The notes beneath the pieces were generated by a model. That model searched no databases, had not been told where the DNA came from, and saw nothing but the letters and a program-made list of their open reading frames with translations. A program made the position numbers and the translations under genes. From the IMG/VR virus record IMGVR_UViG_2667527792_000002: a DNA stretch of 5,163 bases; one strand, written 5' to 3'. The DNA is from a virus. Its lineage: Duplodnaviria > Heunggongvirae > Uroviricota > Caudoviricetes. Shown in pieces: positions 495 to 5,163 of this stretch. Position 1 is the stretch's first letter, and each line of letters starts with the position of its first letter.

Positions 495-592
495 TGACCA
501 CTTTTACCGACAAAGAACTGATTAAAGAAATTAAAGAGCGTATCAGCAGCCTTGNCNTGNGNNANNATNTTGAAATCTTAAGGGTAAGATAA
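494..592 (+). other. Short coupled ORF (about 32 codons, MTTFTDKELIKEIKERISSL...) interrupted by ambiguous bases; possibly a truncated gene
   Basis: ATG at 494 overlaps the TAA stop of the preceding ORF (TAATG). Frame runs through the N-containing stretch 555-570 and stops at TAA 590-592, so the reading is unreliable. Confidence 0.2.
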
Positions 593-675
593 AAGGTCAT
601 TAGACAGAATGACACGTTTTATTAATAAATAAAGCTATTGTTTCATTCGTGTGTTTTTCTTTACAAAAGTAATCC

Positions 676-704
676 TTGCTATGGTTGGTTAATCATGCGT
701 TAAT
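676..704 (+). promoter_or_regulatory. Putative sigma70 promoter for cspI (-35 TTGCTA 676-681, 17-bp spacer, -10 GTTAAT 699-704) with AT-rich UP-like region upstream
   Basis: Hexamers resemble the cspA promoter (TTGCAT / CTTAAT). A start near 711 would give a ~145-nt leader, the long 5' UTR typical of cspA-family cold-shock genes. Sequence-based prediction only. Confidence 0.3.
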
Positions 705-855
705 GGTGTTCTGGTTTGTTACAAAATTATCTGAAGCAGTCATTGTTATAATTTTATTATTTGTACCTCTTGAGATTTCCTTGTTGGTTTTTCTCTCTGA
801 TATTTTTTTTCGGACCATTCTGCCCAAGGGCTAACTTCTTCAAAAGGTAATAATG

Positions 856-1068
856 ATGTCTAACAAAATGACTGGTTTAGTGAAATGGTTTAACCCTGAA
901 AAAGGTTTTGGTTTCATCACGCCGAAAGATGGTAGCAAAGATGTGTTTGTGCATTTCTCAGCTATTCAGAGCAACGATTTCAAAACGTTAACTGAGAATC
1001 AGGAAGTCGAATTTGGTATTGAGAACGGACCTAAAGGCCCTGCAGCTGTTCATGTAGTGACACTTTGA
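856..1068 (+). CDS. cspI: Cold-shock protein CspI (CspA family, 70 aa)
   Basis: Translation [70 protein letters not shown] has the RNP1/RNP2 cold-shock motifs and the [14 protein letters not shown] signature I recall for CspI of the Qin prophage. AAGG RBS 8 nt upstream. The ORF track starts one codon earlier (853); the second ATG matches the known N-terminus. Confidence 0.9.
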
Positions 1069-1272
1069 GGTAGAAAATATTACAAACCATATTCACTTTA
1101 GATGCCCGTGTTGCCATGGTTCTCAGTATAGAACATCATCTTTTGATGTTTCTGACAGAAATCCTTTCGGGGCAAAATGTATCTTTTGTAAATCAATGAT
1201 GATTACATTTGATAATATTTCACAATACTTAAATGTTAGCCATCTGTCGTTAGATTTAAGAAAGTGAAAATG

Positions 1273-1298
1273 AAGGCTCCTTCGGGAGCTTTTTTGCT
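1273..1298 (+). terminator. Rho-independent terminator candidate (stem GGCTCC / GGAGCT, UUCG loop, then TTTTTTGCTT)
   Basis: Hairpin at 1275-1290 followed by a run of six T. About 200 nt downstream of the cspI stop. The opposite strand also has a U-rich tail, so it may act in both directions. Confidence 0.5.
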
Positions 1299-1339
1299 TA
1301 GTGTCTAGTCGATGGATACTCACATATTACGGTAACATT

Positions 1340-1570
1340 ATGAAAAAAATAATAGTTTTTTTTAACTCTGAACCAGCAATGGTAGTGCCAGTGATGACCG
1401 GAGTTAACACCATCATGCGTGAATATCCAAATGGCGAAACAACACACCTCACTGTAATGGCTGCAGGGTTTCCATCTCTGACCGGAGATCATAAAGTCAT
1501 TTATGTAGCAGCGGATCGACATGTAACTTCAGAAGAAATTCTGGAAGCAGCAATGAGACTCTTGAATTGA
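1340..1570 (+). CDS. Small hypothetical protein (76 aa), possibly YmcE/YnfN-like
   Basis: ORF MKKIIVFFNSEPAMVVPV...EAAMRLLN from ATG 1340 (the track's 1301 start is a GTG inside the terminator tail). Weak RBS. It sits between cspI and a gns gene, as ymcE does in the cspG-ymcE-gnsA locus; the similarity claim is positional and by size, not sequence-verified. Confidence 0.45.
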   Translation: MKKIIVFFNSEPAMVVPVMTGVNTIMREYPNGETTHLTVMAAGFPSLTGDHKVIYVAADRHVTSEEILEAAMRLLN

Positions 1571-1742
1571 TTTGATTCTAATGCATTGATAATAAATGAT
1601 AATCATCTTTATCTGTTTGTGTGAAATTTAGACCGTCGTATGTTGATTATTGCGATGTTTCATCTTATCTTTTATACGTTTGCTCCATATAATTGACACT
1701 ACTGTGTACCAGGACAGTCATAACAGACTAAAAGAGGAAATG

Positions 1743-1916
1743 ATGAACATTGAAGAGTTAAAAACAAAAACAGAAGCAGATATTTCTGAATATATAACAA
1801 AAAAAATCATTGAGCTTAAGAAAAAGACCGGGAAAGAAGTTACCAGTATCCAGTTTACTGCACGGGAAAAAATGACTGGTCTTGAAAGCTATGATATCAA
1901 GATTGATTTAATCTAG
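1743..1916 (+). CDS. gnsB: GnsA/GnsB-family protein (57 aa)
   Basis: MNIEELKTKTEADISEYITKKIIELKKKTGKEVTSIQFTAREKMTGLESYDIKIDLI matches the Gns family (conserved TAREKMTGLESYD). AGAGGA RBS upstream. The track's longer ORF from 1650 is an upstream extension without RBS support. gnsB rather than gnsA is inferred from the prophage context next to cspI. Confidence 0.75.
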   Translation: MNIEELKTKTEADISEYITKKIIELKKKTGKEVTSIQFTAREKMTGLESYDIKIDLI

Positions 1917-1978
1917 CATGTTTATAGTATTAGCATCAATTTCTCATCAGATGCTATTCAACAATACAAATTATCCAT

Positions 1979-2006
1979 AAACCTCGTTTTTACGGGGTTT
2001 TGTTAT
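1979..2006 (+). terminator. Possible intrinsic terminator downstream of gnsB (stem AAACCUCG / CGGGGUUU with one G-U pair, then U-rich tail)
   Basis: Hairpin at 1979-2000 followed by TGTTATATTT. Part of the U-run is used in the stem, so this is weaker than the 1273-1298 candidate. Confidence 0.35.
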
Positions 2007-2211
2007 ATTTAAACATTACCGAATAGATATAAATCTCGATTGTCGATGGTATTGGTTGTGTGACAATACCTAGTCTTTCCGGTATGCCTGAAGAGAATAC
2101 AAACGACAGATTATGTAAGGGAAACGCGCTGAAACTTTCACTCTTTCATGCTGAGTGATTTGACGTTATATTTTTAGCCGCAAGTGAAGAGCAAACGAAT
2201 GGAGCGACAAA

Positions 2212-2418
2212 ATGCATAAAGATCAATACACTGATGCCCCCTCCCAGGAGCAGGTTCGTGTAAAAACTATGCTTAATAGCACCATTTCGATGGGTTACCC
2301 GGATGTTGTAATTGCATGTATAGAACATCAAGTATCTCTGGAAGCATTCAGGGCAATTGAGGCCGCGTTAGTAAAGCACGATAAGAATACGAAGGATTAT
2401 TCCCTGGTGGTTGACTGA
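2212..2418 (+). CDS. Hypothetical small protein (68 aa), prophage moron
   Basis: [43 protein letters not shown]... with GGAG RBS about 7 nt upstream of the ATG. No family recognised. Confidence 0.45.
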
Positions 2419-2781
2419 TCACCATAACTGCTAACCATTCTGACCATTTCACAAGTGACAGAGTCAATATCGTATTCTGTCACTGTAATGCTAATACAGT
2501 ACTGCAATTCAACTACAGCAATGCCTCGTATTTAGGTGAATTTACAATATCGTCCAGTTCGGATGCCGGCTGCATTTCTGAAGATAAGGCATTTCGGTTC
2601 GCGTATTTTCCCCTCATGCTCGTCAGTCCTGCGCGTAGTAAGAAACAGGACACTCACACTAATTTGTGTGAGCATGCTGTGATGTCCTTCTGAATTATCC
2701 CCATGCCATTATGTAACGCTCTGTTTCAGATGCTCGTCACGGTTGTCAGGCTGTCGGGTCCTCCCAGTGGGGGTCCCTGCC

Positions 2782-2801
2782 ACGGGGCGGGAGCGTCGCG
2801 G
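2782..2801. other. cosN-like cohesive-end site of a lambdoid phage (ACG|GGGCGGGAGCGT|CGCGG)
   Basis: GC-rich island in AT-rich DNA. Compared with lambda cosN (ACG GGGCGGCGACCT CGCGGG) it shares the ACG flank, the first six bases of the 12-nt overhang and the CGCGG flank. It lies about 196 bp upstream of the small terminase start; lambda cosN is about 190 bp from Nu1. Confidence 0.5.
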
Positions 2802-2847
2802 AAAAAGACTAGTTTTTGCATTTCCATGGCGGCGGCAGCATGTTTGG

Positions 2848-2860
2848 TAATTTATTGATA
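2848..2860 (-). promoter_or_regulatory. IHF-consensus-like site (WATCAANNNNTTR on the minus strand) within the putative cosB
   Basis: Plus strand TAATTTATTGATA matches the reverse complement of the IHF consensus. Its position between cosN and the direct repeats parallels lambda I1. Such matches are common in AT-rich DNA. Confidence 0.25.
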
Positions 2861-2877
2861 ATTAAAAGTTATTTCTC

Positions 2878-2964
2878 TTTTCACCTGTACAATATTTTTT
2901 TCTCCCTGTCATTAGACCAGTTTGCAATTAATTGAAATATATAAATAAACCTGATTTTCACCTG
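2878..2964 (+). repeat. Two 10-bp direct repeats TTTTCACCTG (2878-2887 and 2955-2964), candidate small-terminase binding elements (cosB R-like)
   Basis: Exact 10-bp repeat 77 bp apart, the second ending just before the small terminase start. Spacing from cosN resembles lambda R2 and R1. A 10-bp perfect palindrome CAATTAATTG (2925-2934) lies between them. Confidence 0.4.
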
Positions 2965-2980
2965 CCAGATGGAGTTGCTT

Positions 2981-3508
2981 ATGTCAAATGTGAGCGGGAT
3001 CGGTGATGCTTATTACTGGAGTGTTTTTAAAATCGCCGAGGCCTTTGGGCTTCACCGGGACACAGTAAAAAAACGGCTCCTCGCGGCCAACACTCCTGTG
3101 GCTGCGACTGTCAGGGGGAACCCCGTTTACGCCCTGCAGCATGTCGGGCCCGCCCTGTTTAGTGTGAAGCATGAGGCAGCAGACTCTGTTCATGATCCAT
3201 CCCGTATGGAGCCGAAAGAGAGAAAGGACTGGTACCAGTCTGAAAATGAAAGGATCAAGCTGGAAAAGGAGCAGCGAAAACTCATCCCAGTTGATGAAGT
3301 AGTCATCGTCTATTCGTCCATGAGAAAGGCTGTCGTCCAGGTTCTGGAGACAATTCCGGATGTTCTTGAACGCGATTGCGCCCTGACTCCTCAGGCCGTC
3401 GGCGTTGTACAGCAGGCCATTGATGACCTGCGATACACTCTTCAGGAAAAATCCTACGAGGCTTGTGCTGCTGAATTAATTCCTGATGAGGAAGGAGAGA
3501 GTCTCTAG
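2981..3508 (+). CDS. Phage terminase small subunit (Nu1-like DNA-packaging protein, NohA-type), 175 aa
   Basis: ORF immediately upstream of a gpA-family large terminase and downstream of a cos-like site. N-terminal HTH-like segment (IAEAFGLHRDTVKKRLL) then a charged coiled-coil-like middle, the same layout as lambda Nu1. Start placed at ATG 2981 (GGAG RBS at 2971-2974) rather than the track's 2969. Confidence 0.65.
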   Translation: MSNVSGIGDAYYWSVFKIAEAFGLHRDTVKKRLLAANTPVAATVRGNPVYALQHVGPALFSVKHEAADSVHDPSRMEPKERKDWYQSENERIKLEKEQRKLIPVDEVVIVYSSMRKAVVQVLETIPDVLERDCALTPQAVGVVQQAIDDLRYTLQEKSYEACAAELIPDEEGESL

Positions 3509-3516
3509 GAGGAATA

Positions 3517-4962
3517 ATGGGTTTTTCATCAGCCCGAAATTTGGGAAGGGACATATCGGCAGGATTTTCCCCACCACGTCGCATGCCGATTTCGGAGGCT
3601 GTTAAAAAATTCATGCGTGTTCCCAAGGGGGCTGGTAACTCGGTGCCATGGGATCCTGAACTGACACCCTACATCATTGAGCCCATGAACTGCCTGGCAT
3701 CGCGTGAATACGATGCGGTGATTTTTGTTGGTCCTGCGCGAACAGGGAAGACCATTGGTCTGATCGATGGATGGATTGTCTATACCATCGTTTGCGATCC
3801 TTCGGACATGCTCGTTGTGCAGATGACCGAAGATAAGGCCCGCGAGCATTCTAAAAAGCGCCTTGACAGAACGTTCAGAAGCAGTGCGGCGGTAAAGAAA
3901 AGAATGAGTCCACGTCGTAACGACAATAATGTCCATGATAAGACGTTCAGGGATGGCTCGTTCCTTAAAATTGGTTGGCCCTCGGTCAATATTATGTCGT
4001 CGTCGGATTACCGGTTTGTCGCCTTAACCGATTACGACCGTTTTCCGGAGAATATCGACAGCGAGGGTGATGGTTTCTCCCTGGCCTCAAAACGTACCAC
4101 CACATTTATGTCCGCCGGGATGACTCTGGTGGAGAGCTCGCCGGGACGTGACATCTGCGACAGCAAATGGCGACGTAAGTCGCCTCATGAAGCGCCACCG
4201 ACGACTGGTATTCTTTCCCTTTACAATCGTGGTGACCGCCGCCGCTGGTACTGGCCATGTCCGCACTGCGGTGAATATTTTCAGCCAGCTATGGATGCCA
4301 TGACCGGCTACCGTAATGAACCGGATCCCTTTAAAGCCAGTGAGGCGGCGTATCTACTTTGCCCGCACTGCAGCGGCATTATCACTGCGGAGAAAAAGCG
4401 TGAGCTCAATAGTGCAGGAGTCTGGTTGCGTGAAGGTCAGGTCATTGATCGTAACGGCAACGTTTCCGGTGAACCGCGCCGCTCCCGTATCGCCAGTTTC
4501 TGGATGGAAGGGCCAGCTGCTGCGTATCAGACCTGGGCGCAACTGGTTTACAAATTACTGACTGCAGAACAGGAGTATGAAGCGACAGGAAGCGAAGAAA
4601 CACTCAGGGCGGTTATCAACACCGACTGGGGATTGCCTTATCTTCCTCGTGCCAGCATGGAGCAACGAAAAAGTGAACTGCTTGAGCAGCGGGCAGAGCC
4701 AGTTCCTTCCCGCAGTGTTCCGGATGGCGTTAATTTCCTTGTGGCGACAGTGGATGTGCAGGCGGGACGTCATCGCCGTTTTGTGGTTCAGGTAACGGGC
4801 TATGGCAGCCGTGGCGAACGCTGGATTATTGATCGTTACAACATCACGCAGTCATTGCGCAGTGACTGCGACGGGGATACACGGGCGGGACCATCGGGAT
4901 GCAGCGTTCCGAGCAGGGTTATATTCCGGTGTCAGGTCATCTACAACGCCAACTGGCGCTGA
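3517..4962 (+). CDS. Phage terminase large subunit, lambda gpA family, C-terminally truncated (likely non-functional)
   Basis: AGGAGG RBS overlapping the upstream stop. Walker A-like VGPARTGKT, and [12 protein letters not shown]...LLCPHCSG resembling the lambda gpA Cys/His motif. About 450 residues of phage homology versus 641 in lambda gpA. After about 4860-4877 the frame reads through host ansA sequence out of frame to TGA at 4960-4962. Confidence 0.8.
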
Positions 4963-5163
4963 TGCCGGAATTCCATCGCCCGGAGATGCCAGATTTCACC
5001 ATTCATGAATATACGCCGTTGATGGATTCTTCTGATATGACGCCGGAAGACTGGCAGCATATTGCTGAAGATATTAAAGCGCACTATGACGACTATGATG
5101 GTTTTGTCATTCTACACGGTACCGACATGATGGCGTATACCGCCTCTGCGCTGTCGTTCATGC
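4899..5163 (+). CDS. ansA: L-asparaginase I (ansA), 5'-truncated; native start codon and first ~9 codons absent; continues past window end
   Basis: Frame-0 translation from 4878, [40 protein letters not shown]...[16 protein letters not shown], is near-identical to E. coli AnsA residues 10 onward as I recall them. Upstream in frame is a TGA at 4863-4865 with no ATG/GTG/TTG before the ATG at 4899 (native Met16). A product starting there would lack the catalytic Thr14 of the TGGT motif. Confidence 0.75.

Follow-up and report, generated by a model that had tools for sequence, protein, structure and literature searches.

Among lambda-like phages the 7-bp cosQ is highly conserved, as is the CG at the nicks, whereas the right half of the overhang often varies, without measurable consequence for cos cleavage (PMC4669245). 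In lambda, initiation of packaging requires a TerS matched to cosB, while termination requires cosQ and cosN only (PMC4669245). The Salmonella phage Gifsy-1 is counted among the lambda-like cos phages (PMC4669245); unlike the locus described here, it has a Nu1-type TerS and a lambda-like R sequence (CCGTTCTTCTT) after its cosN. Closer to this locus stand the phages cdtI (AB285204 / NC_009514) and Tritos (OV696610), whose TerS is 100% identical to the one encoded here, and, at a greater distance, the mEp460-type phages (mEp460, mEp460_ev081 and Ayreon), which share a TerS of the DUF1441 family with it at only about 42% identity. Tritos is a plaque-forming siphovirus from E. coli LF82 (PMC9928086); the paper describing it contains neither a description of cos nor a statement of how the genome ends were set. 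The authors of the Ayreon study likewise left cos unmapped (PMC5764929). Our literature search found no published subsite analysis of the cdtI/Tritos cos, returned incidental mentions only for DUF1441 and, when made with the 12-mer GGGCGGGAGCGT, gave one unrelated mammalian paper and nothing on phage.

The DNA analysed here, called the window throughout, is a stretch of 5163 bp that constitutes the entire contig CDRT01000581.1 of the fragmented draft assembly GCA_001373215.1. The contig consists of three pieces, and not one of 5426 complete genomes of E. coli has them next to each other. The central one is the late region of a lambdoid prophage, with the gene order cspI, ynfN, gnsB, a 68-aa open reading frame, an intergenic region, a DUF1441 protein and a large terminase of the GpA family. 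Upstream of cspI there is an Rfam match to the cspA thermoregulator, the only Rfam match obtained. The features used below are the following, with signed distances counted from the nick:

1-554: prophage early region of the yfdR/yfdT type (99.6% match)
555-570: first joint, N-riddled, between the early and the late region, with Ns only where the two source loci differ
570-4877: lambdoid prophage late region carrying cos, 100% identical to intact prophages in complete E. coli genomes
2756-2762, plus strand: cosQ-like heptamer GGGTCCT, which lambda, phi80 and Gifsy-1 carry at the corresponding position
2780-2801, plus strand: cosN of 22 bp, CCACG GGGCGGGAGCGT CGCGG, placed by alignment and by the ends of phage records
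2785-2796, plus strand: predicted 12-nt 5' cohesive end GGGCGGGAGCGT, from homology and deposited phage ends
2797-2829, plus strand: most conserved block, CGCGGAAAAAGACTAGTTTTTGCATTTCCATGG, in the alignment of relatives
2830-2846, plus strand: group-specific element CGGCGGCAGCATGTTTG (+46 to +62), candidate R3-equivalent TerS site
2848-2860, minus strand: IHF site with the exact core consensus WATCAANNNNTTR (TATCAATAAATTA on the minus strand), at +64 to +76
2878-2887, plus strand: first copy of TTTTCACCTG; six diverged loci all have its T2881, A2883 and CTG 2885-2887
2905-2939, plus strand: conserved block CCCTGTCATTAGACCAGTTTGCAATTAATTGAAAT, with the core ATTAGACCAGTT, kept among relatives
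2955-2964, plus strand: second copy of TTTTCACCTG, 77 bp after the first and just 5' of the terS ribosome-binding site
2981-3508, plus strand: small terminase gene, 175 aa, DUF1441 / PHROG 141, with an HTH-like N-terminal segment WSVFKIAEAFGLHRDTVKKRL
3517-4877, plus strand: N-terminal 454 codons of a large terminase gene, GpA family, 100% identical to intact 699-aa genes
4878-5163, plus strand: piece from the interior of host ansA, starting near codon 11, joined bluntly to terL

We propose, with a probability of about 85%, that positions 2756 to 2980 are the complete cos (cosQ, cosN and cosB) of a common lambdoid prophage of the cdtI/Tritos type, and that the junction of terL with ansA is most probably chimeric. 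The proposal is carried by the homology of the core to lambda, by the coincidence of the nick with deposited genome ends, by the conservation of the subsites and by the families to which the two terminase subunits belong. As a packaging site the locus is already known, since it is that of a widespread phage type whose ends are in GenBank; prophages of this type cover at least 80% of the window in 390 of the 5426 complete E. coli genomes. What is mildly new is only the comparative map of cosB for terminases of the DUF1441 type.

The window was compared with lambda, phi80, N15 and Gifsy-1 in alignments anchored at the nick. From -32 to +46 it is identical to lambda cos at 52 of 78 positions, a score that none of 1000 dinucleotide shuffles reaches, and both the CGCGG that follows the overhang in lambda and its T-rich, GCTA-containing flank are also found in the window. 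The heptamer GGGTCCT, which lies outside the 2782-2964 segment on which attention was first centred, is separated from the top-strand nick by 22 bp, against 23 bp in lambda, phi80 and Gifsy-1. The heptamer does not vary among 68 different upstream sequences that go with the same TerS; everything to the left of about 2750 is mosaic in them, conservation starting at cosQ. Searched with the composite pattern GGGTCCT-N(18-26)-CGGGGCGG-N6-CGCGG, the window gives one match and 200 shuffles give none, so that there is a single cos on the 5.1-kb contig.

The position of the nick is indicated by homology together with the way in which related genomes were deposited. The records of cdtI and Tritos both open with GGGCGGGAGCGT, corresponding to window position 2785, and both finish with ...CTGCCACG, the equivalent of the bases up to 2784; to open a genome at its left cohesive end is the lambda convention. 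Read in this way, the nicks would lie at 2784/2785 on the top strand and at 2796/2797 on the bottom strand, both flanked by CG, and virion DNA would bear the 12-nt overhang GGGCGGGAGCGT. This overhang is identical to that of lambda, GGGCGGCGACCT, at eight of 12 positions, including all six of the left half, with mismatches at positions 7, 8, 9 and 11, and it differs from the Gifsy-1 cohesive end, GGGCGGCAGCGT, by one mismatch, at position 7. Among relatives of the window the cohesive-end sequence is highly variable. [quoted passage not shown]

From cosN to terS, cdtI and Tritos are 98.7-99.4% identical to the window, and upstream of about 2745 they carry a different mosaic. Counted from cosQ to terS, Tritos differs from the window at 4 bases and HannyBb at 2. 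The block that follows cosN (2797-2829) has the consensus CGCGGAAAAnGnCTAGTTTTTGCATTTyCATGG among relatives, and is equivalent to the cosN right flank and I2 segment of lambda by position and partly by sequence. Within it, the window carries an A at position 2808, which is the minority allele in 78 related loci (G in 64, A in 14); G is present in all the diverged relatives and in all three isolated phages, and besides this position cdtI and Tritos show a few other single-base differences from the window. The A could weaken the cos site, although the same allele recurs in those 14 loci. The right-hand limit of the shared core is marked by mEp460_ev081, which matches the window from cosQ through cosN at 98% up to position 2824 and then continues into a different cosB, built of two 98-bp units in tandem, and into a TerS only 42% identical; the conserved post-cosN block and an IHF consensus are present in it as in the window. 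This switch is a natural exchange of modules that marks the boundary between cosN and cosB.

Beyond +46 the likeness to lambda cosB ceases. The segment from +47 to terS aligns with lambda no better than chance (473 of 500 shuffles reach the score), and no lambda R-like sequences (CGTTTCCnTTCT-type, +50 to +160) are present in the window alignment, which fits with a TerS of the DUF1441 type and a divergent TerL. For the anatomy of cosB, relatives with a TerS 54-95% identical to that of the window were compared. In these, the element at 2830-2846 takes different forms according to the predicted recognition helix of TerS: as GGCGGC(GGC)AG it goes with the helix HRDTVKKRL, as GGGACACCACCA with DRKAVKRRL or DRKSVRRRL, and as ATCGCATCATCAGCA with DRATVRKRI or DRATVRKKI. 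Since the element occupies the place of lambda R3, we favour it as candidate for the main site of TerS, to which the TnAnCTG cores may also contribute; as the match between helix and element extends over three clades only, it may reflect either co-variation or shared descent. A shared GGCAGGTG motif linking 2830-2846 to the reverse complements of both TTTTCACCTG copies was considered and judged too loose.

The IHF core consensus next to this element has the same orientation as the I1 core of lambda (+79 to +91) and is about 15 bp closer to the nick. Taken alone, the consensus is not enriched in the window; it is found at the same place in the loci L094, L096, L186 and L012 and in mEp460_ev081, and IHF would be expected to bind and bend the DNA at 2848-2860. 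A second IHF-like site, with one mismatch, is contained in the conserved block at 2905-2939 (2925-2937, minus strand). No sigma-70-like promoter is found in 2400-3100, and an interpretation of the conserved blocks as a promoter was dropped for that reason. The distance from the cosN overhang to the ATG of terS is 183-185 bp in six diverged loci, and its fixity despite heavy divergence points to a geometric constraint; measured from the nick, terS starts at +197 in the window and at +191 in lambda. The cosB of the Trabulsiella locus L012 shows a clear tandem duplication with a 78-bp unit. Tandem Repeats Finder reports no repeat in the cos of the window.

The two exact direct repeats of TTTTCACCTG at 2878-2887 and 2955-2964 are probably functional in some way. 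That both of them are cosB binding sites for TerS, equivalent to lambda R2 and R1, is a tentative reading which we regard as possible and rather doubtful. The copies are exact, 77 bp apart and located on the terS side of the IHF site, and L095, with a TerS 75% identical, has the same pair at the same spacing. Besides the invariant T-A-CTG of the first copy in six diverged loci, TCACCTGCCAG is retained in the second copy in four of six relatives. The 77-bp units that end in TTTTCACCTG align better than 99% of shuffles, a hint of an old duplication of the module, and clear duplications of cosB modules are known from L012 and mEp460_ev081. Nevertheless, when this AT-rich stretch of 184 bp is shuffled, an exact 10-mer direct repeat appears in about 6% of cases, and loci whose TerS is identical differ from one another at 2882 and 2884, the second copy showing no matching change. 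L094, which has the same recognition helix, contains only the degenerate TTTTATCTG and GATCGCCTG, and an unbiased search for 8-mers that recur two or more times in each of the four loci with that helix gave none. Conversely, L095 and L096 retain the motif despite a different recognition helix. The TTTTCACCTG motif, being kept across helices, therefore does not track specificity, whereas the element at 2830-2846 does. The second copy, moreover, abuts the ribosome-binding site of terS and could serve translation control instead.

The open reading frame of terS begins at an ATG at 2969; the conserved start at ATG 2981 is preferred because homologues begin there and a GGAG (2971-2974) is placed six bases upstream. 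The protein is, by profile comparison, a remote relative of Nu1: TerS hits the Nu1 PHROG at 1e-9 and lambda Nu1 hits PHROG 141 at 6e-8, weak hits that are reciprocal. BLASTP of TerS against lambda Nu1 gave no significant similarity, and a profile search of PDB sequences gave no match. The large terminase, which shares only 26% identity with the gpA-type TerL of phi80, matches the profiles GpA_ATPase (2e-81) and GpA_nuclease; the fragment in the window contains the ATPase domain in full, whereas its match to the nuclease profile breaks off after 117 of 294 positions.

The features that the earlier note had read from the letters of this region are all present where it placed them, while its interpretation is borne out in part. 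The cosN core ACG-GGGCGGGAGCGT-CGCGG is present at 2782-2801, its overhang departs from lambda at the four of 12 positions listed above, the IHF-consensus site lies at a lambda-like distance, and the TTTTCACCTG pair is exact. The same note had staked its proposal of a lambda-like cos on the region aligning to known cos sites over more than a short G-rich core. The alignment does pass that core: the similarity takes in cosQ, the CG beside each nick and the flank that resembles I2. The predicted nick also coincides with the deposited ends of cdtI and Tritos. The description of the layout as cosN plus a cosB-like module needs to be divided, since the lambda-like part extends to +46 and the IHF site is kept, but the rest of cosB is unlike that of lambda. 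Similarly, the site may be called essentially intact, with the exception of the minority base at 2808 in its most conserved block.

The arrangement around the cos site is another matter. Across the first joint (555-570), the yfdT-locus continuation and the sequence upstream of the late region can be overlaid: every position at which they agree is called and each N is a disagreement. This pattern reads demonstrably as a consensus forced over reads of two different loci, and the joint occurs in 0 of the 5426 complete genomes. The second joint (4877/4878) is blunt, with zero shared bases, zero Ns and no overlap signature. It too is found in none of the 5426 genomes and in no other recorded contig, and the 481-aa fusion of terL with ansA that it creates is recorded on CDRT01000581.1 only. 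In a genome with 100% identity to 570-4877, terL runs on to 699 aa, with genes for portal and protease-capsid proteins downstream of it. Taking into account that (i) the joints are missing from complete genomes, (ii) the Ns of the first joint follow the disagreements of two loci, and (iii) terL is intact in identical prophages, the truncation of terL and its fusion to ansA most probably arose in chimeric assembly and are not biology, misassembly at the second joint being a strong suspicion short of proof. Gene truncations and neighbourhoods on CDRT01000581.1 are, with a chimeric contig, unsafe to interpret.

The same evidence bears on the alternative advanced in the earlier note, a real decayed prophage in which terL was deleted into ansA while cos and terS stayed intact, so that a matched superinfecting phage would package the ansA-side DNA. 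At face value the contig does carry the fusion, across a joint without ambiguous bases, and in cos and terS it matches intact prophages at 100%; besides, packaging of a passive prophage cos by a helper is established for lambda, 21 and N15 (PMC4669245). We nevertheless consider this alternative unlikely. The fusion is peculiar to a short contig that also bears a joint of demonstrably two-locus origin, and the ansA-side DNA is probably not adjacent to cos in the real chromosome. The terminase sequence does end at 4877, after 454 of about 699 aa, as the note had observed, but the break is likely an artefact of assembly, and the prophage without a functional large terminase next to ansA that was deduced from it is not supported, given that its joints occur in none of the complete genomes and identical DNA is intact elsewhere. 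The further step, that the region would be packageable in trans like a cosmid, was overstated, since it needs both a helper with a matched TerS and a second cosQ-cosN downstream, with the two cos sites oriented alike and separated by roughly a genome length, or else a concatemer (PMC4669245). Because initiation in lambda and 21 is specific for the pair of cosB and TerS (PMC4669245), lambdoid phages in general would be unsuited as helper, and only one with the cdtI/Tritos TerS would be able to start here. A single cos would moreover allow initiation without the cosQ/cosN-dependent termination that finished particles require (PMC4669245), and with one cos on the contig and no downstream finishing site the comparison with a cosmid would fail. 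The window shows no sign of a special arrangement for trans-packaging.

Two other origins of the site deserve even less credit. Gram-negative phage-inducible chromosomal islands (PICIs) have a helper-like cosN with a different cosB (PMC9026076), and the cos could on this ground be ascribed to an island that hijacks the terminase of a helper. Such an ascription is very improbable: the upstream neighbours are moron genes of a late region (cspI, ynfN, gnsB) and lysis genes, terS, terL, portal and protease-capsid genes follow downstream in identical prophages, the site forms the ends of two complete phage genomes, and integrase, alpA and an rpp-like gene are absent nearby. A fortuitous resemblance to cos within G-rich intergenic DNA has nothing in its favour except that the core motif is short; with no shuffle reaching the match, with phage genomes ending at the site and with its conservation, that explanation is refuted for practical purposes and is the least credible of all. 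On the other side of the balance, the points counted against a complete cos of the cdtI/Tritos type are the cosQ spacing of 22 instead of 23 bp, the A at 2808 and the reliance of the nick position on homology and on the way records were deposited. Against the chimera stand the lack of Ns and of an overlap signature at the second joint, which could, with lesser probability, be a real rearrangement peculiar to the strain.

For a complete cos of the cdtI/Tritos type we envisage the following course of packaging, by analogy with lambda. The DUF1441 TerS would bind cosB between cosN and its own gene, at bases predicted from the comparison of relatives, and IHF would bend the DNA at 2848-2860. The GpA-family TerL, positioned in this way, would nick at 2784/2785 on the top strand and at 2796/2797 on the bottom strand, leaving GGGCGGGAGCGT. 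Packaging would proceed rightwards through terS, terL, portal and so on, and GGGTCCT at 2756-2762 would signal termination once the following cos of a concatemer is reached.

The map obtained here (cosQ, cosN, flank, group-specific element, IHF site and TnAnCTG cores) could guide the annotation of genome ends in phages of the cdtI, mEp460 and Stx types, many records of which are opened arbitrarily. It also suggests a broader picture, to which we would give somewhat less than even odds, namely that phages with a DUF1441 TerS form a large uncharacterised branch of lambda-like cos phages, with a shared cosQ-cosN-flank core and a modular cosB of 184 +/- 1 bp, sometimes tandemly duplicated, whose segment from +46 to +62 co-varies with the TerS helix. 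If this were true, there would be at least three or four packaging-specificity groups in the prophages of E. coli, Klebsiella, Trabulsiella and other enterobacteria; cosQ and cosN being common to the groups, prophages of different groups that share a cell could therefore terminate, but not initiate, on the cos of one another. The scan of genome contigs with TerS gave only two loci, one of them on a contig of an E. coli phage that had been assigned to a Veillonella MAG in binning. The IMG/VR scans returned mostly near-identical E. coli loci and added three informative relatives.

The contig under study is most likely a chimera of three parts. Over window positions 555-570 (CTTGNCNTGNGNNANNATNT) the sequence contains dispersed Ns, each of which is placed at a position where the continuation of the yfdT locus disagrees with the sequence upstream of the late region. 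Since the Ns occur only at the mismatches between these two sequences, the stretch is a consensus built across a false overlap.

The cspI-ynfN-gnsB moron cluster is located between the lysis genes and cos, and strong expression of cspI and ynfN has been reported in lysogens of phage Tritos (LF82 paper, PMC9928086). The following features were assigned in the window, the two ORFs also lying between the lysis genes and cos:

698-1114, Rfam match to the cspA thermoregulator (RF01766, 107 bits), covering the prophage gene cspI in both its 5′ leader and its coding sequence
1340-1570, small conserved phage ORF (PHROG 3425/YnfN)
2212-2418, small conserved phage ORF (PHROG 657)

At position 2808, within the most conserved block after cosN, a G stands in every diverged relative as well as in the isolated phages Tritos, cdtI and HannyBb; the window has an A, a minority allele that 14 of the 78 related loci carry. 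The record of mEp460_4F5 (LR595868.1; loci L263/L264) opens 5 bases ahead of the inferred nick, at CCACGGGGCGGGAGCG-CGG, and lacks the TCG present in its relatives. This start looks like an assembly break or an error at physical ends; it is consistent with genome ends at this cos site, but does not constitute clean evidence for them.

In mEp460_ev081 (LR597641.1; L265, 230-425) the entire cosB module is present as two identical tandem copies of 98 bp each, the unit extending from GGCTAGTTTTTG to the IHF consensus inclusive, and hence this phage has the presumed TerS/IHF binding region twice after a single cosN. A tandem duplication of the cosB module is also observed in Trabulsiella guamensis (NZ_JMTB01000011.1; L012, 645-790), with a 78-bp repeat present in 1.9 copies with 83% matches and taking in the group-specific GGGACACC element and an IHF-like site. 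The length of this repeat nearly matches the 77 bp that separate the two direct-repeat copies of TTTTCACCTG in the window.

Two further related loci, L093 and L182, encode a TerS 89% identical to that of the window and retain the terS-proximal 130 bp (ATTAGACCAGTT ... ATCACCTGCCAG). In both, cosQ/cosN and the conserved flank are absent over 1.5 kb upstream, and that stretch is occupied instead by three minus-strand genes. The window's E. coli phage terS was also found, at 99% identity, on a contig labelled as a Veillonella parvula metagenome-assembled genome (L011, JAGZPX010000007.1), which is probably a binning contaminant.
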